This document shows, one piece after another, positions 6,501 to 30,326 of a DNA stretch of 64,000 nucleotides (within the stretch, counting starts at the first letter, position 1; each line of letters begins with the position of its first letter). The translations under genes and the position numbers were made by a program. Below the pieces are notes generated by a model. That model saw nothing but the letters and a program-made list of their open reading frames with translations. It did no database searches and was not told the origin of the DNA. The stretch spans positions 9,001,412 to 9,065,411 of the forward strand of contig CAJINV010000002.1 in NCBI GenBank assembly GCA_905178155.1. The letters are read 5' to 3'. Origin of the DNA: Amoebophrya sp. A120. Lineage: Eukaryota > Protista > Dinoflagellata.

Positions 6501-9209
6501 AAAAACTACACCAAACCCTGTTTCGTCTAAAACAATCTCTGAGCGTATTGCGCAAGCGCGCACGGCGCTAGAGAGAGGCACTCATTTCGGATTGGAGTGT
6601 ATGTGTATGTAGTACCAGATAGATGCCAATATACTTATTTCCTCGTTGATACATAATGAGCCCGTTGTCAGTTCTACCTTTTGGCTCAAGCATCATCATT
6701 TTCTCTTCGCCTGCGAATGCCGTCGCAGATCACGAAAACATACATACTGCAGTAGTGCCGGCATGCGGCAAAACAATTCGAGGTACTATGTTCGTAAAAA
6801 CCTCAAGAGACGCTACGAAAACGAAAAACGGCATGCTGAAAGTTTTCCTTCCCTAGGACTTTCTTTTTCCTCCCCACGTCGAGCTTTTTCCGCTGCCGGT
6901 CGCGCGCCACTCCCTCGTCCACAAATGAGTAGGGATTGTCTTCGTCGACTCGCGCATCCTGTTCCGGCGATGGTGTTGAAGCAGGACCACGACCCGCAGT
7001 AGCTACAATGCTATTTCCGACGGGTATGCGTATTCTATTCATCAGATGCCGCACTTTCTCAATGCTGACTACCGGTACCGCCGGCGAGGCGTCCGAAGGG
7101 CTCGGTTGAGTGGTGAGGCCGCCGCGCGTCTCCGTGGGTTCGGGTCGCATTCCGGCGGAGGCGCTGCTGGCATCCGCTGGTCGCGTGGCGGTCGGACTTG
7201 CAGTTGCTGCTGCAGGTTCGGTCTGGAGAAGGGACGCCTCCTTGGCTGGTGGGTGCGATACTGCGTTTCTCACCTCGGAGGTCGCTATCCTGGCATCGGC
7301 CGCGTCGTTTGCATGCGGTGGGACCGGTGACTCGGTTCGCGCCTCCGCTTCGCTCGCTTCCTTCTGTTCGCTTTGGCTAAGAACCTGCTCCTGCGAGGGC
7401 GACTGCTCCGAGACCGGCCGGGCAACTACCGGCTCGCCCCCTTCTAGCTTCCCAGCGTCGCTCCTAACTACCGGCGGGGGCTTTTCTGGAACCGGAGAAC
7501 CTACGGCATACGTGCCTTTGTTTTTCGCTGCCTGGCTTATATCGCTTACATCAGGTGATGGCTTTTCGTCTAAACCAGGTCGCGCGTCGGTGGCTTCGGT
7601 GCCTGCACTTCTAGCGGCGGTGGTCGTGCCTGCCGAAGCCGATGGAGGGGGTTTCTCTGGCGCAGGTGCCTCGACCGCGTTTTTCAAATCTTTGTCTTTC
7701 GCGACGGTGCTATCCGTTTGCAAATTCGGAGGACGCCCTCGGACAGATGCGTCTTCTGTCGCACCATCGTTGGCTTTATTATTTGCTCCACTAGAAGTAG
7801 CATCAGACAGTGGATCCGTCCGCTTATCAACATCTTCCGCCGCTTTATTATGTCCACCATTCGCCGCTGCCTCTGCCGCGTCTGACCCTCCTGAATCCTG
7901 CATATCGTCCGTTCGTCCGGACGCAGCTTCTTCTGCGCTCTCCGCGACGAGGGCGTTACTGTCAGGGTCGATCACTGGTGGCGGCTCGGGCTTTTTTAAG
8001 CCGTTGCCCACTAAGGTTGATTTCAATATTTTCTCGGTAGCCGGGTGCGAGGAACGGCTTTCTGGTGGCTGCTTGTCACCTCTGCTTTCGTAACCATCCG
8101 AAACACGACCAGGTTTCTTTATTCCGGCGTCTTGTTCGCTGGCAGCGGTTGGCGGCGGAACAGACGGGCGCTGCGTCTCCGACGTGCCCGTTTGTTCACT
8201 AGTTTGCTTTGCATTATCGTGTTCTGCAAGTAATCTATCCTCGCTTGGTAGCGTCCCAGCACGCTGCTTTACGGCATCGTCGGTCTTGTGCTCGTCTCGA
8301 CCAAGCGCCGTCTTTGCAGCCGCCTGGTCAACATCTCCCCGTGGTCCCGCGACTGGAATCTTACTGTCGCCCGCAACTGGTATTTTACTACCCCCAGCGA
8401 GTGGAAGTTTTTGTTGCTCCGGCGGATCTTCATGCAAAGTTGGCGACTCGTCCGCAGCCGCAGGTTGCGGCGCAGTTTCTGCCGGGTCGCCGTTCTTGTG
8501 CGTAGTCGCCACCGCAGAACCGGCGTCAGAAAGGGGCTTGTCTGTTGCGGCAGTACTAGTACCGCCACCAACTGCACTTGTGGTATCGGTTCCTGTTGTA
8601 GAGCCGCTAGTTTTTGTAGCAGACGCGGGTACGCTATCACCTGCGGTTGCAGAAGTACTATCCGGAGCCGGTTGTGTCTTATCCGAAAGAGCCGCGGTTG
8701 TCGGTGCAGTCTGTTCCGCGACCGTGCTAGCGTCCTTGTTGACCGCAACGGACGACACTCCTTCTGCGGGCGTCGCGTAGTCCGGCTTTTTGTTTGCATA
8801 CAGATGCAGCTCGTGCCTCTTGGCCATAAACTTGGTGTGGGAAGTGTCACGCTGAAAACGTTTCTCTTTGCGGAACCAAAAGCAGTGTGCTGGCAACAGT
8901 TGTTGTCGCTGCATACAAAACGGCTCATGCCAGTTCGCTACAAGTCACAAACTAAAAACAGCGCCCAGTTGAAAATACTTCTAGTCCGCCCACACCCGGC
9001 ACGACACCGCGACTAACTCTTGCGGCGCAAAGAGAAAACGTTTTCTTTTGTGGATACGAATTGAAAACCTTGGTGGTTTCGTATTTGAGTCCCATTCCGT
9101 ACACGAACGTGGCCGTCACCAGCGCAATGCCCACCAGGCCGAGAATGTGCACCCAGGAGGCGTTCTTCGGCACCGCCGGTTCCGGGTCCTCTTCGTCGGG
9201 CGTTGTCAT
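3574..9209 (-). CDS. Multi-exon, low-complexity hypothetical protein with an N-terminal TM/signal anchor and duplicated Cys/Lys/acid-rich exons
   Basis: Exon ~9209-9069 encodes MTTPDEED...WVHILGLVGIALVTATFVYGMGL and ends at AAG|GT. Long Ala/Pro/Ser/Thr-rich ORF ~8820-6860. Probable micro-exon 6710-6678. Further exons at ~6484-6120, ~5900-5640, ~5295-5030 and 4632-3574, each preceded by an AG acceptor. Several junctions unresolved. Confidence 0.6.
4330..6484 (-). repeat. Four tandemly duplicated exon units (CxxC/CxC, poly-K/E/D, SS-F-[LV]-E); the units at ~5030-5300 and ~5640-5905 are the closest pair
   Basis: GCENCAEPDDRDSGTTKKK...NCDCACNS...RRSSSSFVENETAKHEQQ versus GCKTCAEPDDRDSGTKKK...NCDCPCNS...RRSSSFVENEKAKHEQQ. 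Three of the units share the acceptor context tttt...tgatag. Confidence 0.8.
5330..5602. mobile_element. Degenerate MITE-like element inside an intron; related sequence at ~12995-13230
   Basis: Ends gacctcaaagcaactttc and (reverse complement) gacccatagcacctttc. Internal aactttcaaaatttgacgaa...ggagtc and ctcatatgcc recur at 13018-13066 and 13106-13115. Confidence 0.5.
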
Positions 9210-12200
9210 CCTGCTGTCGGACCGGGCGCCGCTGCTGCGGTTATTAGAAAGTACTAACTCAGAGTTTCTTTCAACTCTCCTTCGCTGCCACAAGTAGTTC
9301 AAATATTTCCACTGCGCAGACTTCACTGGACCGCAAGTTGCTCCCAAAAGAAAATTAAAACCCTCGGTGGCTTTCGCGCATGCAAAATCACGTTTGAGCA
9401 GGAAAGAAGGTCTGAAAAAGGCGCAGTCATGATCATTTTGGGGAGTGGGAGTGGTTAATTTGTTCGGAAGCATTATCTTATTGTACATAAAGGGGGCTTA
9501 GTTTTAATTTCGAAAAAATATTCTGAAACACACAGCCGGCGCAGGGATCCTGCGCACGCTGGTCGACGAGTCATGCTGAGAAGAAACGTATCAATCTCAA
9601 TGGGGAATTGCTACTTTCTTGGGGGAATTTCTGTGCGTGTCAAAATTGAAGAGAGGATTTGAAACGAACAACATCAGACGGAAGATTTACGCGCGACTAC
9701 AAACCGGAATACGATACCATCTACTTACGGAGCGCACGATAACCGAAACTAGGACGAAGCTACTGGCTGCCAAATCACGAAAGTGTAGAGCACTTTTGCA
9801 CGACAAAGAGTGACAGAACGGGCGATACAAAGTTGCACGCTTGCGAATGTTAACGTCATCGCATCAACCGAAACTCACGATGATAGATTATTGTACGAGA
9901 GGCACAACCGAAAGTGCTCAGAATATCTGTAGACAGCTTCGTCGTGGCGCCGCGAAGCAGGTACGACGACGCGCACCGACAGTTGCAACCAATTCTACAT
10001 TTAAAGAATGCCAGAAACAGGTGCCACACGAAGACACTAGTGCATAACAACCGACCTGGAGAAGATTCGCATTTCAAGAAACATAGCGAACGAACAACCG
10101 GAACTTTGACGGACGCCCGGACGATATTGGTACGCCGTGCAATCTCGTCTCACAAAGAAAAAGAATCGCAGCGCGCAGGACGGCCTTGCACGCGCCAGCA
10201 ATCAATACATGCTTTCACCTGGGCAATCGTCGAAAACTACCTTACTGGTAGTATGACAACCTAAAGAAAATTTCTTTTTACAGCATAGTGTACTTACTAC
10301 AAAGATCACAAGCTACAGAAAAGCTTACCCGTTCTTTTTTTCCGCGCGCCGAGGCGGGAATTTTGCGGGCGAGTTTGCCTCTATCCGGCCCGGGAAAAAG
10401 AGGCTCCCGGGTACCCAGAAGCATTATTGTACTTAAACCTGCGACGAATCCTCCGTGCCTTTTGTAAGTAGTAAACATACATACATACACGCTCCACGCG
10501 GCTCTGCGAGAGGTTTGTGGTGCTCTAAATTTGATCCTGTCTCCCGGAAAGTGATCCACCCAACGTAGTACGGGCGAGCAAGGGCGTGAAGGAACCCTCT
10601 GCGTTCGTGATGTGGACGAACGTCGCAAGAGGTGAACAAGGATCCTGGAGGGGCCTGGGCCGCCCTTTGCTGGGGGGGGCGACTTAGAGCGCACCGGCGA
10701 GCTCTATATCCATGCTCCTGATGGCCGCATCAATGCGTCTTCGCTACGAGCGTCGTGTTGATTGATTTTGCCACGATCTTTCAATGTCGGCGGCGGGCTA
10801 CGAGCCTTGTGCCGCGTTCATCGTGCATCCTGCATTCTAGCGGATGCTACTGCTCCATCTCTCCGCAGACAGAGAGAGGAGGGGGGGAATCTACTACGAG
10901 CAGGCCCCCCGATGCCAGGGCAGCCTCTACGGCAGCAACCCGGAGGGCAGACGCGGACGCACGGGAAAGGCGCAGGGCCCAGCCCTGCAAGGGCATTGCA
11001 TGCGTCCACGCGCGTAAGTAAGAGCAATGTGGGGCGCAGCCCAATCCTCCGGAAGCGGGCCCATGGCTTTCTGGTGCTTGCTAGGTGGCAGGGAGGCGCA
11101 TGGCAGTCGCGGGCCTTCGTGTCTTGCACATCTTTGCGCGCTCGCTGCGTGGCCCTGTATTGGCGTCTCGTTGTCGTATGCTCCGGGGCTGCACACGCAA
11201 CCGATCGGATGCGACGGGCATGCCACAGGGGAGGCTACAGGGGCGTGGGCAATGTTTTTAGACGCTGAAGGCGGCGCGCGATGGTCTAGCTGCGAGCTAG
11301 ACCTGCTGCGACGAGCGTTCCACGGACCGAACTAGGCGAGATGCTCCACAGGCCTCGCGTAGCTGAGGCGGATACATTGTCTCACTCTGAGCGCGTTGCC
11401 AGTCGGTCCTGGCATCTGCTGGGTCCTAAAGACAGACCAAGCACTTTTGTGCTCCGAGCACATGGGCTCCCTTCCCTACAAGGGCGGGATGTAAGTAGTA
11501 AACGAATAAGCGTGCGTGACTCCTACAAAGGTAAACGAAACCGAAGATCCAAGAAGCTATTCCCGAGTGAGAATCTACAAGCGTTTTCGGGGGTCTACAA
11601 ATCCGAAAAGCCCGAAGCACCAGCCCCGGCGATACCGCGGCAGCATCGCCGAAAATCGGCGACGCTCAGAGGTGCTCTGCATGTTCGGTCCGGCCCCGAC
11701 ATTGACAATCCGGGCTCCTTTTGTTATGCACTGCTGCGCCCCACTTCTGGAAACGCCACGGTAGCGCTGCGCCTTCCAGAATAGCGCTTCGTGTGAGAGC
11801 TTCGGCCGCGCCCAAACCCAGCGAACCGCCTCAGCAAGCCGGCCCTTCGGGAATTCTGTCGCGGGGCCAATCGTGTGCGAGCGGTGGACGAGTTCGGGGC
11901 GACCGGCGGGGAAGGGCACAGCTTTTCGCTAAGCAGTGCCCTCGCCCCGGAAGCTCAGGCCCGCCCGCGGCACTTTCGGAAGGTATGCACCAGGCAGTCG
12001 AGGCGGATTCGACGGGCATCCGCCGGCGGAAGCCATAAACTCCAAGCACTGCCCCACACGCAGCGCCGCAAGAGACGCTCCCCGGCCTCCTCGCCCGACG
12101 GGAAGAGGGTCCGAAGCCCCACCAAGGCGGCGCCTCCACCCCCCCTCCTCTTGGAGGGCGGTCGACCCACGCTGCTTCGGAATCCAGTGCCTATAGGGCG

Positions 12201-13304
12201 ATCGTCTTTGCTTCCTGGACTTTCGGAATTTTCGCAGATGGAAACAGGTGCTGTTAAAGTGGGTCCCATAGGGTTTAACTCTTAAAAAAGTACAATGGTC
12301 GTCTAGGCAACCCATTGTAAAAGAGTACTTTTTCCAAAAGTGCCAAACTTTAATGAACCCTATCACCCTACTATATTTTTCATCGGAAGGCACAAGATAA
12401 GAAATTTTGTCAATCTACTGTGATGGAGTAATAAAAATCATCCCAAAACAGTACGAGTATCACTTTGTTCATTTTTACACCCTTTCCTTATAGTGGGACT
12501 CCATTGTAGGGGAGACACACCAAAACACTCCAAAAAGATAATTTTTTTTTCTGTCCGTGTGGATAAATTTCCCGCTATTCATAGAAGAATCATAGAAGAA
12601 TCATAGAGATAATCCACAAAGACTACCATATTAGTGTAAGTGACCATGTGTTTTTTCATATATTACACATATGTAAACACATTTCCACACTTGTAAAAAA
12701 TTCGAAAAAAAATTAAAAAAAAATACGGTGGCATATTTTACATGTAATTACGCCCAATAAGGTGCATGCGATAAATGTATAGACACTGGACAGCACTGAC
12801 TGTGAAAATGCCTTATATTATGAAGGAAATTCTAGAAAAATACGGCGCCCCAAAATTTTTGAAAAAATGACTTTCCGAGACTCTTGGAAATGTGCAAGAT
12901 TTCCCCACACTTTTGACGCATGATTAAGCATAGCACATGACTTGTGATGCATTATCGTCATGCTCTCAGTGTTTTACACACTGGAATTCATATTATTCAA
13001 CCCTTCAAAAATTTTCCAACTTTTCAAAAATTTGACGAACTGAAAAAATAATGCCTTAAAGGAGTCCAATCAGCTCAAAAAGGTAAAAGTAAGGCCATTA
13101 TGCTGCTCATATGCCAAATTATGGCGAACCTCTCAAATTTTACGCCGTTTCCCACGATTTTCCAGAATTTCAAAAAATGCGAAAAATAGGTAGCACCACT
13201 CTTCTAGGTGGGGGCGCTTCAATATGGCCCAAGCTGGGCAAGAGTGTTCCTCCCCGTGCGTCCTTCATGTTATTGCTCATCCGTTTGATCAACAAAAGCC
13301 CACG

Positions 13305-13592
13305 AAACGCGACGGAATGCCATCTATGGGGATGCAATGGGTCGCGGAGAGGGGGGCGGGGGGGGGTCGCTTCGTCGCGCGCGCTGTACTTCTTGCATAT
13401 ACCTACCAAACGCGGCGGAATACTATGTACAGAAGAGGATGCAGTGGGTCGGGGAGTCCGAACGGGGATCGCTTCGCCGCGCGCTGTGCTCCTTGCATAG
13501 GCCCACCCCGCGCGGCGGAATACCATCGGGGGGAAGTAGTGGGTCGGGTGTCCGGGTGGGGATTGCGTCGCCGCGTGCTGTGCTCCTTGCAT
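13305..13592. repeat. Degenerate tandem repeat, ~100-bp unit, about 3 copies
   Basis: cgcg(g/a)cggaat at ~13308, 13411 and 13512; gctgt(a/g)ct(t/c)cttgcat at ~13382, 13482 and 13577; tgggtcg in each unit. Confidence 0.8.
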
Positions 13593-14463
13593 TGTAATCC
13601 ATTCCCGTCATCTACAGTTCGGTACACCTAGTGCGGCAGCACCATCCGGAATGTCAGAAAACCCGACTAGCGTGGCCTACTCGACCTCGCGGCCTCCCCC
13701 AGGCCAGGCTTCGCAATCTTCGGGGGCGGGAGGCGTTTCGCATCAGCAGTGGCATCACAAAGCCGACGGGGCGGCTCCATGCAAAGTTTCTGCATGTCCC
13801 AAAAGTGCGTGCCTGGTTCCGCGGGTTTTGGAAGGTATGTCTTTGGTGCGATTTCCATTGTTCAGCATCGGTGGACTTTCGCGGGCACCCTATTTATTAC
13901 TAGCTAAGATTTGGAATCTTCGGCCTTTGGGAAGGAGAGGTTGTCGCGCTTCCGGAGAGGCATTGCCCTTTCATGCTATTTCGCTGCGGATTCTAGCGTA
14001 TGGTAAACGCGACGCCCGACGCGGGCGGAGCCACCGGGTTCTTGGACTTTGCGACAGTTGTGCCATGTGTCCCCACGACGTGGCTGCTCTCGCCAGCAAG
14101 AAAGAAGACCGCGCAGCCCGAGGAGAATAGGGCGTCGCGCCTCTATTGTTGCCCGGACCCCCACGGTCCGCCACTGCCCCGGGCGGTTATTGCGTACAAG
14201 CAGAAAACCCCGCGCTGCCGCTTTGCGTCTTTCTAGTCGCGCGCCCACCCCTGCGCACGCGGTCATATGAGATCATTTGCTTACTGAGCGCACGACGTGA
14301 TGCAAAATCGAGCGAGGTGGAGAGGAGGGGACAGCACGAGGAGCCACAACCCTGAGGCAAGCTGCCGCCGCACAGCGCCTCCACCATTGCGTCACGTGCT
14401 TAAGCATTGCATTCTCCTCCCTCCAGTCGTTCTTTCCCGCCGCAGCGGCGCGTGCTATCAAAA

Positions 14464-17400
14464 ATGGAGCAGCGAGGCGGCTCCAGCGGCTCGACCAAGA
14501 TGTCGGAGCAGTCTCGCGACCGGGCGAAAACGTTCTCGGGACTGCACCTTCAGATACCGAACACCGCGGGGCATGCGGACGAGGCGATAAACGAGGAGCT
14601 CCGGCGGGAAAACTCCATCACGATGACGCCGGGCGGCCTGAAGTCCGCAACGCTGTGGCCCTGGGCCCAGCGGAACCACGCGCGGCGGTCCTCCGTGATG
14701 CGGGTGCCACCCTCCGAGCAGCCAAGCGCACACGTCGCGGGCAGCGGGGGCGGGGAGGCCGGAATGATTCCGCCCGGCCCCGACGCGTACTGCTCGACCG
14801 AGCAGATCCGGATGACCGCAGCGTCGCAGTCGCCGACGCCGCATCTCGACGACCGCTCCGGGGGGTCCGGGGGCAGCCCCGCGCCCAGCGTCAGCACGAC
14901 CCGGTTGAACGGCAACGTTCCCGGGCCTGCGAGCACCACCGCGACGAGGGTCGGGAAGCCGAATTTTTTTCAGCAGGGGGTGCAGAAGAAAACGAGCCTG
15001 AGTAAGCTGGAGCGCGGGTGGGATCCACGCCGAGCCCTCTTCACGCCGTTCACGCGCGACGAGCACGCGGAGCACTACAAGTGGCAAGACCGTCTGATCC
15101 CCCGCGATTCTCCGTTCTGCCAGAGTAAGGGAAATCTCGACGTCGAGCGCCAGATACCAGGGTATAATGAACGCGGGAGTATTGAATGATGTTGCGAAAA
15201 AGTCAAGCAGAGCTAAGCGTCAGTCATGCAAAAGTAGTGGGGTGCTGGCGCGAAAGCGCGTGTTGTGCAGCTTTGAGAGTAAAACCATATGCAAGGAGAA
15301 CAGGCTCGCACTTCCGCGCATCGGACAAGACAAGAACTTTTGATTTTTTTCAGCAGGTCTTGTGCTACGTATACTCCACCAAAAAAATCGGTTGACTAAA
15401 AACAACTCCAGGTACCTTGGATCGTCGCTCCGTTCGCTGTACTACCAAAATCTGTTCCACTCCATCCTGGACTTCCGCATGCGCACGCACGTGCTGATCG
15501 TGAGCTCGACGTACACGCTGTTCTGGGTGGTCGTCGCGTTCTTGCTGATTCTCGTCGAGGAAGACTGCAACATGCGGCTCGGCGGGAGCTTCATCAAGGC
15601 CTACATTATCGCGGTGGAAACCTGCATGACGATCTATTACAGTGAAAAGTGCCCCCCACCCCCAAAGTTGCAAAAATTTGTGATGCGAAGTTTCCAAATG
15701 AAAACTTTTTGTCATGCATGAAAGGAGTATGAATCTTTCTGATGCAGAGTCTAGTCGTGTTTCGCATCGCTTGCATGACAAGCACCGCTCTTGCTGGGAT
15801 CTTTTGCAATACAAATTTTTGCTATTCACGAGCGGAAATCTGTGATGCTGATACATACATTCGTTTGGAAAGGTTTGCAATACAAATGCTTTCAAGTTCG
15901 GGGGTGGGGGCATTTTTCACTGTCATACGATCGGGTACGGCATGCACGACGAAACGTTCAACGGCTGCTGGTATGGATTGCAAAAGTGTCTGGGTCTAGA
16001 AACTTGTGATGCTGGTTAGCGTATCATGAGCAAGCGATAAGTGCTGGCTCAGCATGACAAGTTTCTGAGCTTTTAGGTGTTGCCTATTCTGCATGACAAA
16101 CTGCGTTTTTGCATGACAGAAAAATGGGGCTCTTGGGTAACGTGCATGACAGATTTAAGAGTCATGCCAGACAAGCATGACAAACGTGCACTCTTCCAGA
16201 CCCAGACATTTTTTCATTTGATAGCTGGCAGATGGCGGTCATCCTCTCCGCGGCCAGTTTGATCTCCATGATCCTGGACGGCATCTATCGTGAGTAAAAA
16301 TGAGAGTCTGGTTGTCCTCGCGCAACTTCTGGCAAATCAGAGCCTTATTTTGCTGTTTGATTTGCATGAAAAACAGATCGAGTATAATGAAGAGTTCAAC
16401 AAATGACCGAGTCGCATGTCTTTCGTGTCGCAGTACAAGACGTGGATTTTCCTCACAATAATGTCCTGATCGGACTAATTTTCATGACGCTAACGAATCC
16501 GCAGAGGCGCGCGGCCACTGTCGTGTTCACTGACAAAGCCATCATAAAGCTCATAGACGGAGAGCCACACTTCGTTTTCCAGGTAAGGGGTGTTGCGATG
16601 CAAAGTGATTTTCAATGCTGAAGTGTGGAAGATTGTCGTGATCGAACTATTTCACAATGTGTCGACCGCGATGAAAAAACCCAAGAAATTCTACTGTACA
16701 GGTAGCAGAAATACGGAAGCAGTCCCTCCTCGAGGCACACATTTTATCAAAGTGAAAGGCCGTCGCTGTCAATGTTGGCTGTGTCATTCTGCATGATTCG
16801 CCCGCACGGCAAAACTCGATACGCATAATTCCAACTCCTGCCATATGGCAGCACGCGGTAGTACCGCTATCACATTTGTTATTCGTTCCCCCGCCTGCCA
16901 TTGACAAAAGTTTTCCGCACAATTCGTTCGCTGCTACTGTTTCAAGCACTGCGACGTGATCAACCCGCTGACCGGGCAGAAATCCAAATCCCGGGTGCTG
17001 CAGCAGTTTCCCATGCGACTGCAGTCTCCGGACGACGAGTTAGGGGGCATGCTGTTTCTGAGCACGCCCTTGCTGGTCGTGCACCGGATCGATGAGTGGA
17101 GTCCGCTGTACCGCCTGTACGAACGAGCCACCCACTGCGGCGTTCCGGACGGCACGGAGGCGGAGCACGTCCGCATGGATTCCTCCAGCTTTGACCAACC
17201 GGAGCGCGGCGGCGGCGCGCTGAGTCGGACCAACAGCGGCCTGCAGCAGGTCCTGTCGCCCAGTCAGAGCAGCCTCATAACCGGGAAGCGCGGGCGGTCG
17301 CAGGTGCTGGCGGTGCAGCACTCCGGGGTGTTTGACGACGTCGATAACTTACCGACGGGAGCGACAGCGAACAAGAGTAGCACGACACCGCTGTACGGAG

Positions 17401-19604
17401 CGCCGCAAAACAAGAATCTGCTTGGTGGTGTTCTTGACATTGATAGCGCAGGTGCAAGAATAAACGCAGTTGGAACCACGATGAACAGCAGCAGTTCTTC
17501 TGCAAGAAGCCCTACGGGAGGAGCGGTTGCCGCAGCGGGAGGCGGGAGCAGCAGTTCCGCGTTGGATCAAACTACAGTGCCTAACGACCTCCCGGACAAC
17601 ACCAGTACGAAGACCAAGTCGGGCAGTACGGTCATCAAATCCGCCGCGGGCCTAAAATCCCCTTCCCCCACGGCGCGGAACGCCTCGAAAAGCCGGCTGG
17701 ACGCGGAGTTTCAGGTGCGGTTTCAGGACTCCCGTGGGTTTACCTACTACCCGGAGCCCGGCGCGAGTGTTTATTCCGAGCACTTGAATAACGAGCGCGA
17801 CTTTTTCGGCAGCCCGACGGAGCGCGAGCCCACGACGATTTTCTGCGCCGGAGACAATCACGCACAGTACCGGCGCATGATCGGCGTGCCCAACCACCGG
17901 TCCATTCACGGCATGACCGCGTCCGGCGACAGCAAACATCCCAAGCAGTTCACGCGCAACGCCGACCGGCAGAGCAGCGGCGTCTTCGGGGAGCCGCAAG
18001 ACCCGGAAAACAGCGGCGGGCAGTCGGCAGTCGATAGAACCGCGAGTCAGCAGGAGGGGCGGGTTTCAACAGCGCAGGCTGATGCGGCTGGCGTTCCGGG
18101 CGAACAAGCAGGCAACTACAACATTGGGAAAGATTCGACAGCAGTGGAGACGAGAATATCAAAACATCAAAGCCAGGACGACACCCCGCCGCCCGCAGTT
18201 CTGAACAATGCGTCGGGCGTATTTCCTGAAACGTCGAGGCCTAGTCGGGTCGACGCCGGTAGAGCCAGCGCGTCGTCCCTGTCACTTGGACCAGCAGAAC
18301 AAAATGGAGCACAATTACCCCACGCCCTCGGTGCCAGCTCCCCCAGCCCCGGATCGTCGGCCAGCAACGCAGACCCGTCGTCGACCCGGGACAGCAAAGC
18401 GCGTAACCGATTGTCCTCCACGTCAACAGCGATTGCAGGTTTGACACTGACCGACCCGATCAAGACATCTCCGCGCGTGTCCGGCAGCGGTACGGGGTTC
18501 GGCGCAGCCAGCTACTTGACCAGCCTGCTGGCGGGCGGCGGAGTGACGTCCAAGGAAATGATGACGGCACAGGAGGAGGAGGGTCCCACCTACGTCGGAA
18601 AAAAGTCCTCGATTGCCGCAGCAGTGGGAAGGACGAAAGACTTGTCTGCGGTCTCGCAAAGTAAGAACGGCGGTGCACCACCAGCTGGGGACTTACTGCA
18701 AGTGAACGATCCCAGCAGGACATCAGCGACAGGAAAAATAGTAAGCGAGCATTTGGAGAAACCAGAAGAAGAGAGCGCTGACCTATTCAATGTTATCTGT
18801 GACGTCGTCGCTACGCAGGCTGGCAGTTCCGAGGCCGGCGCACCACAGAACGGAAACTCTAATACCAGAGAGCAGAGGTTGTACAACTTCGCTCACGAAC
18901 AGGTTTCCACCCAACTGTGCGCCCGGCGCGACTACGTGGCGCCGCCTCTGCGGATGGTCGACGCGGAGCGGGGCATGTTCACGCTCTACGCCTGCCCGTA
19001 CTGCGGTGAAAGTTACGTCACCAAGTGGCTCTATCGGAAGCATCTCGTGCACAATCGCGGACACGGTAGCAGATTTGATGTGAAGCGGGGTTGGATAGCT
19101 AGAAGTCGCAGACAGTTCGTTGCTTGCCCCTTCGCATGACAAGTTTCCAAATTGTAGCATATACGAAATGTAGTTCTTTTTGGATGACCGCTAGTTACGC
19201 GACAAAAACAAACAGGCGACCACCCCGCGGAGCTACCGAAGTGGACGAAACAGATGGAGAACGAGAAAAAGTTCGGCTACAACCTTTACCAGGAAAATTC
19301 CAAACGGCTCGAGCACTGGGACGCGCGCAAGCGCAGCCAGCCGGTCAACCTTCTCAGCCAGGACTACTTCGAGGTTTTGATTTTGGTGGAGGGTATCGAG
19401 CCCTTCACTTCCACCACGGTGCAGGCACGGCATTCCTACGCGTTTGGACAGGACATCGTCATCAACGGGGACTTCATGCCGTGCACCTTTTTGAAACAGG
19501 ACGGCACCGCCATCGTGGACTTCGGGAAATTTCACCAGGTCGTGCAGTCCAGCGAGGACCACTTTTTCGCGGCGAAGGAAGAAGTGAACATTCCGCTGGA
19601 GTAG
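14464..19604 (+). CDS. Inward-rectifier potassium channel (Kir/IRK family), ~1233 aa; exons 14464-15161, 15412-15634, 15933-15971, 16229-16285, 16466-16582, 16702-16743, 16929-19065, 19216-19604
   Basis: Reassembled motifs: M1 YTLFWVVVAFLL; pore AVETCMTIGYG; M2 SMILDGILIGLIF; NPQRRAATVVFTDKAII; VAEIRKQSLLEAHIR; PLLVVHRIDEWSPLY; FEVLILVEGIEPFTSTTVQARHSY; VDFGKFH. Exon lengths sum to 3702 nt (in frame). Three GT-AG introns and four TIR-type introns. Confidence 0.92.
15635..15927 (+). mobile_element. Introner-like TIR element A (non-canonical intron) splitting the K+ filter TI|GYG
   Basis: Left TIR tattacagtgaaaagtgccccccacccccaaagttg; right TIR (rc) tatgacagtgaaaaatgcccccacccccgaacttg. DR CGATC at 15630-15634 and 15928-15932. 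No register of the precise excision gives GT-AG. Confidence 0.93.
15972..16223 (+). mobile_element. Introner-like TIR element B
   Basis: TIRs tatggattgcaaaagtgtctgggtctagaa and (rc) tatcaaatgaaaaaatgtctgggtctggaa. DR GCTGG/GCTGG. Removal gives NGCW|QMAVIL. Contains repeated gcatgaca. Confidence 0.88.
16286..16460 (+). mobile_element. Introner-like TIR element C in the M2 helix
   Basis: TIRs tatcgtgagtaaaa and (rc) tattgtgaggaaaa. Degenerate DR GCATC/ATGTC. Removing 180 nt gives ILDGI|LIGLIF, colinear with the Kir2 M2 segment IIDAFIIG/IIDSFMIG. Confidence 0.75.
16745..16924 (+). mobile_element. Degenerate introner-like element D
   Basis: Starts tat; right end (rc) aattgtgcggaaaac resembles element C. 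DR CATTT/CGTTC. Removing 185 nt gives LLEAHI|RCYCF (Kir consensus EAHVR). No in-frame GT-AG option found. Confidence 0.65.
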
Positions 19605-20784
19605 CGGGGGGGAAGGAGGTGCCACTGATGCACTTGCATTTCGGTTTTTATGTAGCTGAAGTTCGGGCACTAGATCGTCCGCAAAAGATCTTTTTTTGAA
19701 GCGCGACGACGAGAAAATTTTTCGCCTGTGATGTTTCTTTCGCGAAATGACGATGCTTGTATGTACTTTGCGCGACATCAAAGATTTGCGATCGGCAAGC
19801 TTGTGCAGGAACGATAAAATATTAGCAGAGTCGACGCCTCTCGAGCTCTTTTCTACGGACAAAATGTTGAAAGACCCGCAAACTTCGTATACTCTGAGAC
19901 CCATTCAATTTGACGGCTTCCTACGACCCATGTTTTTAGCTGAGTTTTACTTTTCTTGTCAGAATGTCTATTTTGGATGAAGAAATAAAACATTTAGAAG
20001 TAACCGGTAAAATCACTCGCTTTTCCCATCGTGCATGGTTTCTTGCTGTTTGGTGGAAGGAGAACGGCCTGTAGTTGTTTGAATTTTTGTTGAAAGTTAG
20101 GGATGTCTTGAAATGCGGTCGGAGTTCTGTCAGTCCCGTGTACAACTTTTCCGAAGTAAGAACCAGTGAAGCAGTCGTGCAGTCTAGTAGGCTTGCATAT
20201 TTTTTGAATGAAATTTTTTATGAGTAGAGTTACTCAAGAGCCTGTGGCGGGGACGCATTGGCCTCTTCGGTACTAGGACCGAGGTGGTTGATGTTTCTGC
20301 CTGGGCAAAGGAGTTGTCGCACTAGTCATCCGAAGCACGCGCTTCGTTCGCGATTTCCCGTGCAGGTGCAAAGAAACTGCAAAGAATAGGATGCATGAAA
20401 AATACTACAGAAAAATATTTTAATGAACCCAGTCTTTTGGTACCGGATGCGGAGGAGAAGCAGCTCGCAGTCCAACATTTCCACTACCTCGGAGGAAGAC
20501 GTGTACTGGAAGGGTCGGCTTCTTGTGCACGCTTTGCCAGTGTTCATGTGTTCGATATGCTCACCAGCACACCCGCGCGTTTTTGATCATGGTCCAACCA
20601 GCTATCCACCCGCCTCGCTTTTTTGCAGACAGGCGAACGATGACAATATCGCCTCGTGGGTCGTACATTAGATAGAAGTAGAACTACAAAGAGCTGGCTC
20701 GCTATACGAGCGTGCCACCGCGCCGCGAGCAACTGAAGGTTAGAATAAGAGGGCCCGAGAAAAAGAATCTCACTTCGGAACAAC

Positions 20785-23723
20785 ATGTCGCATCTCCGTT
20801 CGTTTGCTTCCTTCTTCAACCTGCTCGGCGCGAGCCAATGGAAGTCTGCAGCTGCTATGCCTGTGATTTGCAACGGACCGGGATCCACCGGGTACCGGGA
20901 TCTGAAGAAAAGCAGTTCCGACGCGGAGCAAGAGTACTTCCACCGCGCGCCCCTGCTTGCGAGCAATGCGTTCGAGCAGGAGGCGCGGTCCTTCGTCAAC
21001 CAGGAATTCGTTCGACGAGGAGTGCGTTCGTCCACAGCCGGTGAGGAACAAATTCCCGAATTCTGCACGCCGACCTTTGGAGGGCAGGAACTAGGCAGCG
21101 AAGCGGATGGCTTCATGGGTACGAATCCCGACGAGGAGTTGGACCCCGAGGAAAACCACCCACCGATGGTGCTGGCCGGCGAGGCGAATTCGCACAGGGC
21201 CCGCGCTGCCCACCCGCTGCTGGGCTGCGCGCGCCGCAACCAGCGTGCGCTGAAGTTTCTCGGCGTCGCAACAGCGGTTGCCGGCGCAATTTCCGGACTT
21301 CTTGGCCCAAATATGATCGGCACGACGGGCGGCACGAATAGTCAGTTTGCAGCAAGAACTGCGGGACAGGAACCGTGTGACCTCAAGTCTTCCTCAGCCG
21401 GACGTAGTAAAGCCTTCTTGCAGCCGGCGGATCACAACGCCGCCTCTGCCGCACCTTCCGTTGTTGACAAAGACGGCAATTTGATTGCTTTCTCGCAGGA
21501 CTTGCCGTCGCCCAAAGGATTTGACTCCTCGGGCGACCACACCTACGAGAACCTGATAAGGTCCGGGAAGGCGCAGGTCTTGGAGCTGGTGGAAAAGAAA
21601 CCAAAAATCACGTACCGCACGGCGGAAGAGACGGAGGCATTGGCGAAGAGGGAAGCTGCGAAGAAGGCCGCAAAGGACAAGGACGACACCGTCCCGCCGT
21701 TCGTGAATCTGAATCTGGTCACCGTGGAGCGCAAGCCGGCGGGCGCAGCAACTACGCGACAGGCGGTTTCGGACGTGAAAAAAGACATTGCGCAAGCGTT
21801 CGCAGCAGCAGAACCAGCAAAGAGCGCAGCTGAGGACAGTACTGAAGCTAATGCCAGTTCATCTTCGTCTGTCGCTAAGCAAGAGAAAGCTTTCCTCAAC
21901 GCGGAGGCACATACCCTCGCCAGCGCGCTCACGGATGGCGTCGAGAATCTTTTCAAGGACTCCTCGTCCTCGGGAAAGTTGAAAGTAGAGATGGAAGACG
22001 GCCAGACGTTCAAGTACGAAACTGGGAATATGAAAGGCAAAAGTACACAAGAAGATTCTTCGTCCGATGAAACAACCTCATCACAACCAGTCGCTTCACC
22101 AACAACCTCGGCGCCGCAAAAAAACCACCTGCGGCCGGACGAGGTTCTGATCGAGGGAAAGAAGTACCTCACCGTGCATTTGCCAGCGCTGGACGAGGCA
22201 GAAACGGAAACCGGTCATGCGGAGGAAGATTTGACACCAGATGAAGGCAGGCCAAAAGCAGAGATCGGCTCTCTCGCCCCCTTGCGCGACATCACGGACG
22301 CGGACAGGTTCATTCAGATGTCAAACCTGCCTCCGACGTTCATTGCCGGCCCAGAACCGACGGTAGGACATCAAGAGGTCCCAAACCCAACCGAAGCAGT
22401 GCGTCGTTCCGACTTCTTGAATCCCACCCAGAGATTCGTGCTGGATCTACAACGCAAGAAGCGGCTGCTCGCGCACGTGGTCACGCCCGGAAACGCGATG
22501 CAACAACGGTACGCCACGCCCGAGCAGGTGAAGCAGGCCATGACCAAGGCGGACCCGCTGAGCTACATCGAGTTCGATTCGCAGGACGTTATGGTGCTGC
22601 CCGACACGCCGGACAACGGTTTTGTTTCCATGTCGGCGTCATTGGTGCTCCCGAAATCCGACCCGCTCGACGACGGTATGCCGTTCTACTCCGCGCCGTT
22701 CGTTTGTCCTTTGGGAGAAAGTACTACACCGTTCGCGGCCGCGGATAACCGCTTCACTGACAGTTTCCCCGTAGGTGGAGGACCGCAAGCAGCGGGTATG
22801 AGTACCACGCCGGAGGAGATCAACATTCAAACCTTGATTTACGGGAAAACCCAACCCGAGCTGCCATTGTCGACCGCGCAAGCGAACACCGAAGCCGCAA
22901 TTGTCGAAAAACAACACCCCTACTACATGCAGTACTTCGACGCGGACCAGTGCGACGTGCTCGTCACATCGAACGGCGATTTCGGTAGCACGGTATGCAT
23001 TGCAAGTGTAAACTTCGCACTAGCTTGAATCGCATATAGAAATGTTTCAAGAAGAAAGTTGGAATTTGTCGTGCAGATATTGGTGGTAAAGGGAAACCAG
23101 ATTTGGCATGTATGAGTGCGATTTCAGTAAATACAAGCGCGATACTTACATTTTGCAGTGGATACATGGGAATCGCCAGCAACGCGCTGCGCTACTCGAA
23201 GAACGCGGCGGACCGGGCGCATTGGCTGGAAGAGTTGTTGGCGAAGAGAATTATCAATCCCCTGGATAGCCGCTTCGCCGTTACGATGACCGAGGCGGGC
23301 AGGAACGCGCTTTTCAACGCGAAAGACAGTTTGACGCCAGACGAGCGGAGCCGCGCGATCAGCTACTTCCGAAACCTGCGCGGCCCGCCGACGCAGCAGC
23401 AGATGCTGGACCTCCTGGAGCCGATCCCCGGCGAGTTGACCGAGGTGATCGCGAACTGCCCGTTGAAAGCGCTGGTAGGCGTCGCGGACCCGCTCCAGGT
23501 GATGCCGAAAGTGAACCAGGACCGCGTGGTCAAGGCCAAGATGAACAATCTGGCCTTGAACATGGATGATTTCTTCTCGCTGAACGTGCCCTGCACGATC
23601 CAGAAGCCGTCCATGACCGAGGGTATCGTGACGCAAAATTTACCGGCGCTGCGCGAGGTCGATGGGGAGAATGAAGGGAGTGCAGCAGGGGCGAGTGGGA
23701 CAGGAGCATTTGCGGCCGTGTAA
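20785..23723 (+). CDS. Hypothetical protein, ~920 aa, one predicted TM segment; exons 20785-22993 and 23170-23723
   Basis: The 747-aa and 206-aa ORFs join in frame (FGSTG|IASNAL) once element E is removed. Hydrophobic segment LKFLGVATAVAGAISGLLG. No family recognised. Confidence 0.75.
22994..23164 (+). mobile_element. Introner-like TIR element E
   Basis: TIRs tatgcattgcaagtgtaa and (rc) tatccactgcaaaatgtaa. DR CACGG/CATGG. The obvious GT(22993)-AG(23158) splice is out of frame, whereas the 176-nt precise excision is in frame. Confidence 0.82.
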
Positions 23724-24548
23724 GAATAAAGAAATGCGGAGGACCTTCATGCTTTGTAGCGGTTTTATTTCGCTGTTGTTTTAGGAATGAAGTTGAAATC
23801 TGTCGTTTCTGTTGTGAAAATACAAAGAAAGAAGTTTACTGCGAAATACAAAACTTTAAGAATACTGATTTACTTCAAGAAAAATTCCAAATCTGTTTTT
23901 TGCTTGCAGAAATGTAAAAAACTTAATTGCCTATGTGAAACAATGAATGGAGTGTCTCCACAAGGTGGATAGATTTTGCTTCAGATGATCCTTTTCACTC
24001 CCGCCCGTGGAGTAGTGCAAGATGAATATAGCTGTAAATCTGCCAAAATTCAACACCGGTAATATGACTAGCCTGAATGAATTTATGTAAGAAGACACAG
24101 GAGAGCAACGCTCGACTGGCTACGGCGGGTTTTCCTTTTCGCGTTTGCAGCAGCGCGCGCTGTTCGGTTGGTGCAACTTATTTTTCGTACCAGGACGGTA
24201 GTACTCCGGATATCACCGTCGGAACAGCATTTGAAATTGTCCAAAACAGTTTCGGATTGAAGTCGGTTGAAGAATGATCGATTGTGGCCAGCGGCATTCC
24301 AATGCGATCTTTTTGCAGCTTTCGGTGGTGCAAGATCTCAGGCAGGCAGGACTCAGATCCTGATGCGCAATTCTCAGAACTGATTGCCCCCCTACACCTC
24401 ATGCATAGGAATTCGCTTGCCCATTTGTTTCGGACTGCCGCTTCGTTTTCAGCCTTTACAATTAATGATCGCGTGCCCCGAGTAGATAGTAGAAAGCTTC
24501 GGAGTAATTCTCTTCGTATTTTTCTGCTCCACACAAATACAAATCACC

Positions 24549-25891
24549 ATGTCGACCCCCATCTCGACTACGAGTACCTCGGATCCCACCCTGACTCTCG
24601 AGTCTTTCCCTTCGCATTTTACCACATTTCTACTCACCTACACAACCCCCTTCGATCTCATTCTTGCAACTATTTTTCTGTGTTTTTCGCTGTACAAATT
24701 TGGCGCGCACCGGCAGAACTTTCTCGCCACAGCCACCCTGATCGCCGCGTACCTGGGTCGGAAAGCGATCTTACCCGCAACGAACCTGGACGGATGGGAT
24801 CCCGGAAATGATACCGTCGGGCCGGGCATCTACGGGGGGAAGGTGCTGTATGACGAGAAGAACAACATTGTTTACGGGAAGCAGTACCAAAACCACAACC
24901 CCTTCGTCGACGGACCGGTTTACGAGGGCAAAGGGGCGGGCTATTCCTTTATGAACTCCCTGTTGCGTGCGTTTGATGTGGATGGCTTGGAAACCGCACT
25001 GGAGAGAGACCCAGGCCTGTCTTTGGAAATCTCCACCGGCGGCGCGACGCCGCTACACTTCGCCGGCATGATCCGGATACCAAACAATAACGCCGCGAAA
25101 AACGCAACGGGCAAAGGACCGCGGGGTTCTGACGGCAGCAGGAGCGTCGGTGAGACAATTCCCAGCAGCGAGAACGCGTTTTATGAAGAGAAGATGCGGA
25201 AAATGGTGAAAAGCTTGCTGCAAGCGTGCCTTCTTCACATTACAGAAGAACAGAACAAACAAAAATCTGCTAGTAAGGCAAGAGGAGGCGGAACATCTTC
25301 CACTACTGTATCCTTATCTCCAGTGGACGCCTGCATCAACAAAAACATCGACCTATGGGGCTACACGCCGCTGCACCGCGCGGCTGGGAACGAGGCAGTG
25401 GCAGTTTTGCAGGAGCTAGTTGCCTATGAATGGCAAAAATGTCCGGGTCTGGGAGGTTTGGAAACTTGGCATGCTATCATGTCGATGGCGTCCTGCCTTC
25501 AATACACACCAGCACATGCGCACAACAAGTGTTTGTGCTGCCATGCGGTGCAGGGAATTTTCATTTTGCATGAGAGATTGCTGCTTTGCATTACAAAAAA
25601 GCTGAGAGGCCTTTGCGCAACATGCGTGACAGAATGGACGCATTTGCCTGCCGAGCATTACAAGTTTTCACTTTTCCAGACCAAGACATGTGTGCATGGC
25701 ATATCGCTGTCGAAAGTGTTGATTTGAACGTCATGTCGACTGGCGTCTACAACCTGTACGGCGGTCCAGAAACACCTTTGGAGACTGCAAGAAGAGAAAG
25801 CGCGGTAGTCGCAACGAGATTTTTGGAAGAGATTATGGAGAAAACGGAAGGGGAAAGTTCGAAAGCGACTCCTACAGACGCGAATAGATGA
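24549..25891 (+). CDS. Ankyrin-repeat protein with an N-terminal hydrophobic segment, ~352 aa; exons 24549-25424 and 25709-25891
   Basis: Ankyrin motifs GGATPLHFAG, WGYTPLHRAAGN and ETPLETAR. The third repeat joins in frame (QELVA|VESVDLN) only after element F is removed. Confidence 0.85.
25425..25703 (+). mobile_element. Introner-like TIR element F, related to element B
   Basis: TIRs tatgaatggcaaaaatgtccgggtctggga and (rc) tatgccatgcacacatgtcttggtctggaa, sharing the tgtc(t/c)gggtct core with element B. DR TTGCC/TCGCT. CATG-rich interior. Confidence 0.85.
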
Positions 25892-26431
25892 AGAGGCTTT
25901 GTTGTGCTGGGAAAATCTCGAAGTGCATATAAGTGATTTCGTCTCTGGCTTCCTCCGTTTACCACGAGGGGAGGCACATTTAAAGTAGGTTGGAAGAAAA
26001 CTGTGTTTGTGTCCTGGCCATATGAACAAGAAGCATCGTGTACTGCAGAACGATGTTAGAATAACCAAGTCGTCCGTATACTGCAGAAAAAATTCAGACG
26101 AAGCAAATCGTGCGCACTTTCCGTTAGCATAATCGTGTTTAATTTTTCGTGAAGCACTCGCATCCATCTCTTGTGTAGTCACACCGGCAAATTCCCGTGC
26201 ATCCTTGTCTCGTTCTCGTTGCTTTTGCACGTGCGTGCGTCGCAGTCGTGTACGACCAACGTGGTCCTCATTTTTTCCAAATCAGCAACCCGCTCCTTCC
26301 CTTATGTTGAACTGCTGTCATCGATTTGCTGATAGAGGCCTAGATTGAAGCAGCGTCGTGCACGTAATATGTTCTAGACCGTAATTATCCTGTTTACCAT
26401 TTACAGTTTTTTCAACCGAAAACCCAATAAA

Positions 26432-26797
26432 ATGCTCGGGAGCAGCACAAGGAATCACGGCTCGAACTCCCCGTCCACACCGGCGACCCGCCGCATTCCG
26501 ATCCAGCTAAAAAGCGTGACCGATAGCGGTATCGTGCCCCGGAACAAGAAATGGAAGAAGCAGCAAGCGTGGAAAACACACGAGATTTTTGCCGCTTTCG
26601 TCGGGTGCCTACTGCTCTGGTGGGGCTTCCTCTACGGCTTGATGCAGCTCTTTGGGGAGCATCGAGGTGGGAGCCCTAGTAATCCTGCGTTCAAAAGCGA
26701 CGACAGCCCAGGAGAGGTGGAGGCCGGAGACAGGAAAATGGGCGGCGCTTCTAGTGAGCCGATTACCGCTTTCACCCAGTCGACAACAAGCGCTTGA
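26432..26797 (+). CDS. Small hypothetical single-pass membrane protein (121 aa)
   Basis: ATG-initiated ORF; basic stretch RNKKWKKQ followed by TM-like IFAAFVGCLLLWWGFLYGLMQLF. Confidence 0.55.
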   Translation: MLGSSTRNHGSNSPSTPATRRIPIQLKSVTDSGIVPRNKKWKKQQAWKTHEIFAAFVGCLLLWWGFLYGLMQLFGEHRGGSPSNPAFKSDDSPGEVEAGDRKMGGASSEPITAFTQSTTSA

Positions 26798-27580
26798 ACC
26801 AGTGCGGGAAATCAATCTCCAAAAGGGCGCGGAAGCCCATAGTTACTCGCGAGTACTTCTCAAGAGATCGATAAACCAATAGCATGTACAATGAGCATGA
26901 AATAAACATGCGTTCTGACCTGAGCGTTTTCATAATACCGTAGCCCCTGTTTCGAAAATCAAAAACCGTGGGAAATGTCACCGCTGCGTTTGTGCTGTTG
27001 GGTCCTGCTTTTCATATCGTTTTGTTGTTCTTCTCTTGGGTCCGGCGTAGGGGTGCTGCATCGTTCCTTGTGCCCGACAATTGCTGTTTCGCGTCGTTAG
27101 TGGATCTCTATGTGTTTCGGTTCCCAGAAAATCGGTGGCAAACGTTTGCGCTCGGTCTGTTCGTTCCCAGTGTTGCACTTGTTGTTTTCGGCTCTTCCAA
27201 TTATATCGCTTTAGCTCGTATCTCTCTGCTTCGGCTCGTACTTAAGAGGCGTGGTAAGCGCATCTCACTTTTTGGGCTAATTATTTCATGTCGAAAAAAC
27301 GGGATCGCGGGGTGGCTAGCTGGGTTCGTGCAGAAATCTTCGGTTTGTAATTTTCACATTTGGAATTAATGATCCTCACCTTCTTTATTTGGCATCCCAC
27401 GACAAGAATTTCAACTTTAGGAAGTTTTCAGTGCTTGGGTTTTTGTTCAACATTGTTGTGGCACGCAGAAGGGCTACTTTTTGGTGAAATGCATTGAAGA
27501 AACCTCGGGGAAAGTTAGTCGCACATAGAGCTGCTCGAAAAACATCTTCTAGCCATACGGAAAATTATCCCATATCCACT

Positions 27581-30326
27581 ATGACGATGATAGGGCAGCC
27601 TGCGGTCGACGCGAATCGCGATTTTCCGAACCTTGTGGAGGAGTACCAGGGTCTTTCGCAATTCGACAATGACGACGCGGAATCTTGCCGAACCATATCC
27701 CCGACGGAAGAGCACAACAACCAGCTGCAGCCCGTGCTGGAGGAGGACGAGGAGCAGGAGGACGACGTCCAGACCGAAGTTCCGGCCTCGGAAGTCGGGG
27801 CGGATCACTACTACCGGACTTCCAATGGCCAGCAGCAGCTGCACAACAACGGGGCGTCGAGCTCTTCTGCTTGCAATTCCGGGGCGGAGAACAACCACCC
27901 GTTGACTGCGTATTTCAGTCACAGCTCGTCGAACCAGCAGAGCAAAAACAGCATCGGCCAGATCGCGGAGGAGGACGACGAGAAGACGGTCGTGCTGCAC
28001 GACCAATTGTCGCCCGATCGGTTGAGCCCGGTGATGGAAAAACACTTCGAGGCACAGCTGTTGAACAAGGAAAAGACCGTGCGGGTGAGCGGAACAACAG
28101 GTGGGGTTGTTTCGAGTTCTAGTTCGCAACACCCTAGGTTTACAGCGGCGCCCCCGGGCGGCAATACTTCGGCAGGCACAGCGGGGAATGTTGGGGTCTA
28201 TCTCCCCCCGGTGGTGCAAGTGGCCACATCGGCGTCGTCTTCGAATAATATTAACTTCGCGAGTTCTACTTCGGGCGCATTACCAGCCGGTGGCAGGCTT
28301 GTGACCGGAGATCAGGTTTGTTTGGTTTTTTTATTGCATGAAACCCTTGGCAGCTTGATTGTTGCGATGATATGGTTCTTGTCGTTTTGGAGTTCTGTTC
28401 TTGGTGTTTTATGGAAGCGTTTTCTTGTCATCAAAAATGGACTTAGGTTCCGAACCCGATTCGCATCACTGCTCCGGGAACGGTCGCCACCACTACACGA
28501 AAGAGTGCGTATGCCGCTCCAGTGAACTTTTCCACGTACTGTGCTGTGATGCTTTTCTTGAAGGCGTGTCAGGAGTTAGTTTGACTACTTAATCTTGCTT
28601 TGTTCGTGATTCGAGGTTTGATCAAAATGGTTCTCAGAAATAAGCACGAGCACATCCTGCATTTAAAGATACGGCGCGATGTCCCCGCAGAACGTGAGCC
28701 GGATGCTGACGCCGCGGAACCCACAAATCAACTTCGCCGGGACAAGGACGCCGCAGCCGTGGCAAATGGTACATCGCCAGCAGTCCTGGTCGCCAAAGCA
28801 AGTTCACCGCCAAAGTTCCACGAACGTCCAGTTCACCACCGGCGGGATACAGGCCAGGGCGACCACTGTCGGTAGGGAGGTTTTTCTTGACTTTTTTCCT
28901 AAAGCGACTGCGTTTCTGTTTCTTGATATCGTTCGGATGAAATACGACTACATGTTGAGGCGGAAGAGGACCAGCCATAAAACTAGAAACACTACTGGTT
29001 CTTGACTTCAATCATGGACAAAAATCAAAAGTTCCCGCGGCCGCTCGGGACCACCTCCACCGCCGTCTGCAAGTGGATGTGGCAGGTACCATCACGCCGG
29101 CGCCGATGCTGCCGAGTTACGACATCCTCCGCGGGGACACCAACCAGGCGATCCGCACCACGACAAACCACCAGAGGTCGTTGAGCCCAGCGAAATTTTT
29201 GGAACCAAGCACTGGGTCAGCAAATTGCCAACGGTCCAGTTCCGCAAGTTCCTCCTCCTCTGCGTCCAACCGCATTCGGATCCAGCCGCCGCCGAGTATG
29301 ACCGCCGTGCAGAAGCCGACGATCCTGGTTGCGCCGCCGGCGGGAGAGCACGGGCTTGGAGGTGGAGCAGCAGCGGCGTCAACAGCTTCATCCGGGCCCG
29401 CGGTGATAAAGACACTAGTAGAGCAGCAAGGGGGGACCGCGAAGAACTGTGAGGAGAAAACGAAAGCAGATCTTGGTCAAGAAGTTGAATTATCGGGAGA
29501 CGGCGTTGCAGCAGAAAGTAACTCCTCTGCAGTAAAAGTCGCACCAGCAACATCTGGCGGTATCATCCCGAATGCGATCGGTCTAGCGACGACGCAGCCC
29601 GTGCCGAAGTTCACGGTCAAGCTTGGGCCGGACGGAAATAAGACGGTAGTTCAGGAAGGTGGTGCTACGGGGGTAGCAGAGCAACAAGCCAGCACTTCCA
29701 ACAAAGCCCAACGCGCGTCGTCCGTGATTCGCGATCGGTCTGTGATTCGGGGCGCAGATGCTACGAATTCGCGGAGTGCAACAGTCGCACCGAATTCGAC
29801 GCTGATCGCTCCACGGGGCGTGCAGATGGCGTCCGGGGGCATGCCGTTGTTTGGCGCAGGCTTGACAACAGCCAGCGGGGAGTCGATATACAACAGAACG
29901 AAAACCTTTTTTCCCGCCTCGCGAATCAACACCAGCGCAGCGGCAGCAAGTAGTAGCCACCAGGGATTTCAGGCAAAGAAGCAGATGGAGACTGCTGCGA
30001 GTCTTAACACAGGTTCCGTCCTTGCGGGAACGAGCAACGCAACCCAGCCGCAAAGCGCTGGTATCGCTATCACGCCCGTGCAGGAGGAGAACCCGGCAAG
30101 CAGGGGTGTAAACGTCAACGCAAATGTGAGCACGGCGGCGGTGGCGAACCGGGTGCACCGTGTGGGGCAGGCCGTCCCGTTTTTTAAACGGGTGTGGACC
30201 CAGCCAACTCCGTGGGGTTTGTCTGCCAAAGTCGGGCTTCCGCTTATGACGGCGCGCGGCGGAGCGCCGTCGTCGGGCAAAAACACACCGGGGGATGCCG
30301 CTACGGGGACACCGTTGGAGAATTAA
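27581..30326 (+). CDS. Low-complexity (Ser/Thr/Ala/Gln-rich) hypothetical protein, ~773 aa; exons 27581-28315, 28447-28535, 28669-28871, 29032-30326
   Basis: Three GT-AG introns with mutually compatible phases (0, 2, 1); exons total 2322 nt. No domain recognised. Confidence 0.7.

Follow-up and report, generated by a model that had tools for sequence, protein, structure and literature searches.

The dinoflagellate Amoebophrya sp. A120 carries short inverted-repeat elements that begin with TAT, end with ATA and are bordered by 5-bp direct repeats, seven of which (A to F and H) lie in a 64,000-nt stretch of its genome (contig CAJINV010000002.1, forward-strand positions 9,001,412 to 9,065,411; hereafter the window, with coordinates counted from its first base). 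The elements are excised from transcripts as introns without GT-AG borders, and the cut falls after base 3 or 4 of the repeat. The element system is real, RNA-supported and already published as the introners of this strain (Farhat, 2021; PMC7789003; published sources are cited here from their accessible text), and the elements are already included in the public gene model. Whereas the accessible text of that study describes the intron border as variable or unknown and mentions no target motif, the data presented here point to a register at base 3–4 and to a motif on one side of the insertion site.

Excision from transcripts and register of the cut

Elements A (15635–15927, 293 nt), B (15972–16223, 252 nt, from a high-copy family), C (16286–16460, 175 nt) and D (16745–16924, 180 nt) share one gene, whereas E (22994–23164, 171 nt) and F (25425–25703, 279 nt, with B-like ends) occupy one gene each. 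The first-pass annotation, made from the sequence alone, had located these six insertions correctly: all of them start with TAT and five end with ATA, D ending with ATT. The 5-bp direct repeats and terminal inverted repeats (TIRs) that it ascribed to every copy hold in part. The direct repeats are exact in A and B and inexact in C (2/5 bases), D (3/5), E (4/5) and F (3/5); end-to-end alignment of the TIRs yielded scores of 20.5 for A, 18 for B, 8.5 for C, 10.5 for E and 12 for F, the inverted repeat of D being weak (2.5). The window has five end-signature pairs that score at least 6.5, whereas 200 shuffled versions averaged 0.3 such pairs and never exceeded 3. Element H (2672–2868, 197 nt, repeat 2/5), absent from the earlier list, is a seventh spliced TAT...ATA copy and sits in a minus-strand gene. 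Three candidates at 4634–5022, 5298–5635 and 5902–6167, in a minus-strand low-complexity gene without cover by RNA contigs, have flanking frames that fit a 5-nt gap, and the signature scan called no TAT...ATA candidate within 26–64 kb of the window.

The published A120 introners, part of a complement of 29,850 repeated introns, are about 240 nt long and have ends consisting of TAT, seven nucleotides and AAA, with direct repeats of 3–5 nt (5 bp in the legend to Fig. S19); in their ends, direct repeats and lack of splice dinucleotides they agree with the window elements (Farhat, 2021; PMC7789003). In the window, the inverted TAT-N7-AAA signature is present, with degradation of AAA at one end of F and of TAT at one end of D, and among the six copies listed at first the border repeat is exact in two and partial in four.

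RNA-type contigs from four runs of one sample (X1–X4) traverse positions 2400–17100 with seven joints, each seen in 4/4 runs, which remove A (298 nt), B (257 nt), C (180 nt), D (185 nt), H (202 nt) and two GT-AG introns. Element E is skipped (176 nt) in run X1; for F, the left break is seen at 25421 in the same run and its right side is deduced from a 373-aa open frame. Every observed skip thus equals the element plus 5 nt. No allowed placement of the cut would create GT-AG borders in any of the seven copies (0/7, GT/GC-AG of U2 type), and nearby GT-AG sites are not used. These joints bear out the earlier proposal that excision does not follow GT-AG and that removing the element with one repeat copy restores the frame: the resulting frames are open over 1239, 932 and 373 codons (the last with the deduced right side of F), and the forms retaining the elements carry frameshifts or stops. 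A contig of run X5 (type unrecorded, DNA-like behaviour) is unbroken across 16195–29000, which indicates that C to F are present in the DNA. The raw-read RNA runs X7 and X8 matched repeats alone, leaving the host genes uncovered. Run X7, from another sample under the same species label, contains 72 reads with a B-type end in which foreign flanking sequence starts exactly after 16223, confirming this boundary of B and its membership in a shared family.

An end-pattern scan of 13 of 64 parts recovered at least 151 loci (591 kb), all in contigs of a single public assembly, JACKZZ01, and biased towards young B-type copies; the pattern had no match in viral contigs. A Rab5 exon from JACKZZ01 shares 98% identity with the A120 protein, so that the assembly comes from the same species or one very close to it and not from an independent lineage. 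Homologous copies of A and B among these loci demonstrate the genome-wide repetition expected of A120 introners; the interiors of C, D, E and H had no match there. The duplication is exact over 5 bp in 119 of 138 paired B-type copies, with exact matches of 2 bp in 10, 3 bp in three, 4 bp in one and 6–10 bp in none, and TAT, which the search did not demand, occupies 290 of 296 ends in 148 B-type copies. According to a self-trained coding model, which assigned the strand correctly for A–C and, at low margin, wrongly for H, a 5-nt gap fits the flanking frames in 116 of 128 cases. The duplicated bases of the related copies show no splice-dinucleotide bias, GT-AG is available at some placement in just 10 of 181 copies, and element interiors are indifferent to transcript orientation (865:864 in 1729 pairs).

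The imperfect repeats are what fixes the register. Copies C, E and H (the last in transcript sense) allow cuts after bases 3–5, and D and F after bases 2–4, so that the cut falls after base 3 or 4; at a related locus (L041), a cut after base 5 makes a stop. Between these two positions, base 4 is likely, judging from protein conservation. At the Rab5 locus (L038), the two repeat copies differ at base 4, and the upstream copy encodes an alanine that is present in 48 of the 52 homologues with the anchor motif (55 matches), including all five closest ones; the conservation of this residue implies that the upstream copy is needed at base 4. Introns of the form N-TAT...ATA-NNNN would then span 15634–15931 (A), 15971–16227 (B), 16285–16464 (C), 16744–16928 (D) and 22993–23168 (E). 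In Table S4 of Farhat (2021; PMC7789003), the predominant non-canonical motifs start with N-T in 9/9 cases for A120 and with TT in 9/9 for strain A25, whose repeat starts with TTA. Searches for further junctions that would separate base 3 from base 4 found nothing for the protein at L047 and, at L008, returned just an uninformative gene call running into the element; 35 flanking peptides had no Pfam match at cut-off. A requirement for identity of base 4 in both copies, suggested by 7/7 window copies, was rejected, since mismatches number 12/11/7/12/11 by position in 197 related copies. The legend to Fig. 3 of Farhat (2021; PMC7789003) gives the border relative to the hairpin as variable or unknown, and a fixed register was not found in the open-access text, although the images of Figs 3 and S19–S25, subscription papers and one Gozashti supplement may bear on it.

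Target motif and transposon affiliation

In 281 empty sites reconstructed from the JACKZZ01 loci, T at −15 together with G at −13 from the centre of the duplication occurs in 183 of 562 half-sites, compared with 6.1% at other offsets. The position is sharp (183 half-sites versus 15–52 at 34 other offsets) and the motif is one-sided: T-N-G is found on both sides of 11 sites, on one side of 161 and on neither side of 109 (odds ratio 0.19, p 1.5e-7). The side that carries it varies independently of element orientation (27/22/21/18) and transcript direction (78:77), and the motif is kept where there is no neighbouring element end (170/510). B-type copies carry it in 128/318 half-sites (120/159 sites) and other families in 55/244, and it is not enriched in low-score control pairs (13/154, p 0.1). 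The oriented profile approximates A-W-T-Y-G-Y at −17 to −12, its frequencies being inflated by choosing the orientation on the same bases.

Because the motif is strand-symmetric, it probably acts in insertion rather than in splicing. Codon phases are distributed 93/50/38, a bias limited to motif-bearing sites (64/24/15 versus 23/22/22), and for this reason intron phase as a splicing signal was rejected; a simple model based on T-N-G accounts for just 42% in the top phase, against the 62% observed. By the mechanism known for IS911, IS3-like elements insert beside sequences resembling their own ends. The motif best matches the element end box at end position 10. Of 720 permutations of the columns, 81 reach as good a match, as do 117 of 2000 shuffles, so that mimicry of the end is not significant. 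No gap of 0–15 nt separates elements (0/113). As a separate observation, gaps between consecutive elements are seldom shorter than 34 nt (three real cases among 113, of 16, 26 and 28 nt, loci L001–L151), a rarity that suggests a minimum exon length.

These data are consistent with short non-autonomous inverted-repeat elements mobilized in trans by a DDE transposase, which would cut the target with a 5-bp stagger at some 10 bp from the one-sided motif, in either orientation, in a manner reminiscent of type IIS enzymes or of an integrase acting distally to a protospacer-adjacent motif. Sap1 likewise directs the Tf1 retrotransposon to fixed positions (−9, +19) relative to a DNA motif. The comparison extends to the offset alone, given that Tf1 is a long terminal repeat (LTR) element that relies on a 21-bp host-factor motif and targets promoters, whereas the A120 elements enter exons (PMC5741268). 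An offset motif for A120 was not found in the open-access text, although the figures of Farhat, subscription papers and one Gozashti supplement may bear on it.

The transposon origin, TAT termini and 5-bp target site duplications (TSDs) proposed in the first-pass annotation are supported by the related copies and had already been published for A120. Its exclusion of Ginger is right as to the termini: neither the window ends nor the related copies have the TG..CA of Ginger1 and Ginger2 (definition in PMC6839031). It is less straightforward as to the name, for a published A120 family with TA/TA termini and 5-bp TSDs is labelled Ginger-like (Gozashti, 2025; PMC12130899), even though the main text of that study describes this family 38 as lacking Ginger termini and TSDs. 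Compared by description, family 38 is about 808 nt long with remnants of an integrase-like open reading frame (ORF), whereas the window copies are non-coding and 171–293 nt long (PMC12130899). Given the TA..TA ends, the transposase is probably integrase/IS3-related. The IS3EU and GingerRoot elements share TA..TA termini and inverted repeats with the window elements but encode a transposase, usually generate TSDs of 6 bp, have TIRs of 100–150 bp and, in the accessible accounts, have no reported nucleotide-specific target preference, in contrast to the 5-bp TSDs, TIRs of about 15–30 bp and one-sided motif of the A120 elements (PMC6839031, PMC10045372). Duplications of 6 bp, in particular, number 0/138 here, against 119/138 of 5 bp.

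Removal of the elements from RNA

We consider it somewhat better than an even chance, from the sequence features of the introns, that a relaxed spliceosome removes the elements, measuring from their ends instead of reading GT-AG. The element end would supply U at +2 and A at +3, like the GUA donors of the canonical introns of this genome (GTA in 5/5 introns inspected) and the TTA of A25, the +1 base and the 3′ AG would be set free and the acceptor would be placed 4 nt beyond ATA. Since the same signal is present at both ends, splicing would be possible in either orientation, and the 5-bp duplication would render a new insertion silent in protein.

The most serious alternative, which we regard as possible yet clearly less probable, retains the same elements and register but invokes a non-spliceosomal endonuclease plus ligase that would read the paired TAT/ATA ends and free a circular or linear RNA. 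The absence of AG and of an invariant +1 base would suit such a system, as would the report that U1 small nuclear RNA was not detected in A120 (Farhat, 2021; PMC7789003). On the other hand, nearly all spliceosomal proteins are present, the non-canonical introns have U+2 and A+3 in common with canonical donors in both strains, and the two kinds of intron follow one another within a single pre-mRNA, for which one machine is simpler. A parallel is provided by euglenid nonconventional introns, which also have an origin resembling miniature inverted-repeat transposable elements, lack GT-AG, carry an end motif at fixed spacers and, in Euglena, leave as circles (PMC12501133, PMC11282704). Their code, N3-CAG...CTG-N5 with spacers of 3 and 5, differs from the A120 TAT/ATA with spacers of 1 and 4 (or 2 and 3) (PMC12501133), and the window ends do not conform to it. 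The spacers sum to 3 + 5 = 8 in Euglena and to 1 + 4 = 5 in A120, the latter being the length of the duplication. hAT elements typically have CAG ends and make 8-bp duplications. By analogy, both codes may be frozen TSD geometry.

A long terminal RNA stem of any sequence, which the first-pass annotation had taken to set the cut, is an unlikely determinant. B is predicted to form a long stem (z −5.6), a hairpin is drawn in Fig. 4 of Farhat (2021; PMC7789003), and end positions 10 and 14 match above random. For element D, however, no terminal stem is predicted (z +0.61), yet it is spliced in 4/4 runs, while in 148 B-type copies end pairing at positions 4–10 is near random (0.72 versus 0.71). Matches at positions 4, 5 and 7 (55, 59 and 34% of copies) do not exceed those of randomly paired ends, G.U and A.C mismatches between the ends are balanced (97:97), and the excess at positions 10 and 14 may be due to subfamily structure. 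These pairing tests are weak because the copies are young, and pairing may still contribute, but stem recognition as the sole signal is not supported. Template switching can be induced where a stem is accompanied by direct repeats. An origin of the skips in reverse-transcriptase template switching at the repeats or in element-free DNA alleles, for which the single sample behind runs X1–X4, of guessed RNA nature and RNA-type behaviour, leaves some room, is highly improbable, given that GT-AG introns are skipped in the same contigs, that C and H are skipped exactly although their repeats agree at just 2/5 bases, that the retained forms are frameshifted or stopped and that the product fits the A25 orthologue across A–D.

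Taken together, a DDE transposase reading an asymmetric motif and inserting 10 bp away from it, followed by removal of N-TAT...ATA-NNNN by a splicing machine that would need just U+2/A+3 and distance, with neither G+1 nor AG, constitutes the most far-reaching account, still tentative, with a probability of roughly 0.45. A number of points weigh against the explanation favoured here. T-N-G accompanies just two of nine window elements. No transposase family was recognized in 21 window frames (48909–54908 left out), and no autonomous copy was encountered, none longer than 1031 nt having an exact repeat in the 591 kb of loci, the ORFs of which were not scanned for transposase families. The preference for base 4 over base 3 comes from a single protein junction, and the N-T starts of Table S4 may stem from aligner preference. 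Of 15 cases put to a coding-model test, 12 gave preference to the downstream copy at base 4; a test of AT drift came out 7:3 for base 4 but in the wrong direction at bases 1–2. To these are added the one sample of guessed type behind X1–X4, the circular excision of the comparable Euglena introns, an observation that does not favour a standard spliceosome (PMC11282704), and the failure to see an excised lariat or circle in the own-strain runs, which consist of contigs only.

Host genes and biological meaning

The plus-strand gene that hosts A–D (14464–19604) encodes an inward-rectifier K+ channel-like protein of 1233 aa, with weak profile matches to such channels, and also contains three GT-AG introns (15162–15411, 16583–16701 and 19066–19215). 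Its spliced product is identical across 1233 aa to the public Amoebophrya sp. A120 model P0001, and the A25 orthologue is colinear with it at the protein level through junctions A–D. At 17244–19064, the C-terminal domain of the channel is interrupted by a low-complexity stretch of some 600 residues that contains a weak C2H2 match; at this position the A25 orthologue and a third one carry inserts of unrelated sequence. The GT-AG intron at 19066–19215, possibly a decayed introner turned canonical, includes an 18-nt stretch (19134–19151) with 94% complementarity to the interior of F. Element E lies in a plus-strand gene (20785–23723) without Pfam match, with a 932-codon open frame once E is removed; F lies in a plus-strand gene (24550–25888) that has weak ankyrin matches under the cut-off and is open once F is removed; and the minus-strand host of H is a peptidase C26/glutamine-amidotransferase gene. 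Elsewhere in the window, a multicopy unit of about 1 kb (10475–11490) has a short direct repeat at its bounds, and contigs that run out of it on either side continue into one and the same foreign sequence, the pattern of an LTR-like or head-to-tail element. Stop-free frames at 34908–54908 (about 6,670 codons) and 55670–62410 (about 2,250 codons) encode fibronectin III, PA14 and filamin repeats.

The cut register and the offset motif bear on questions left open in the accessible text of Farhat (2021; PMC7789003). Sequence-directed insertion at a distance would be unusual for a eukaryotic inverted-repeat transposon, and a motif set at a constant distance on one side provides a fingerprint for tracing the transposase. 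A fixed register turns the lack of a splice signature into a testable code, consisting of the base at +2 and the distance past ATA, and would permit ambiguous intron borders to be re-annotated by the tens of thousands.

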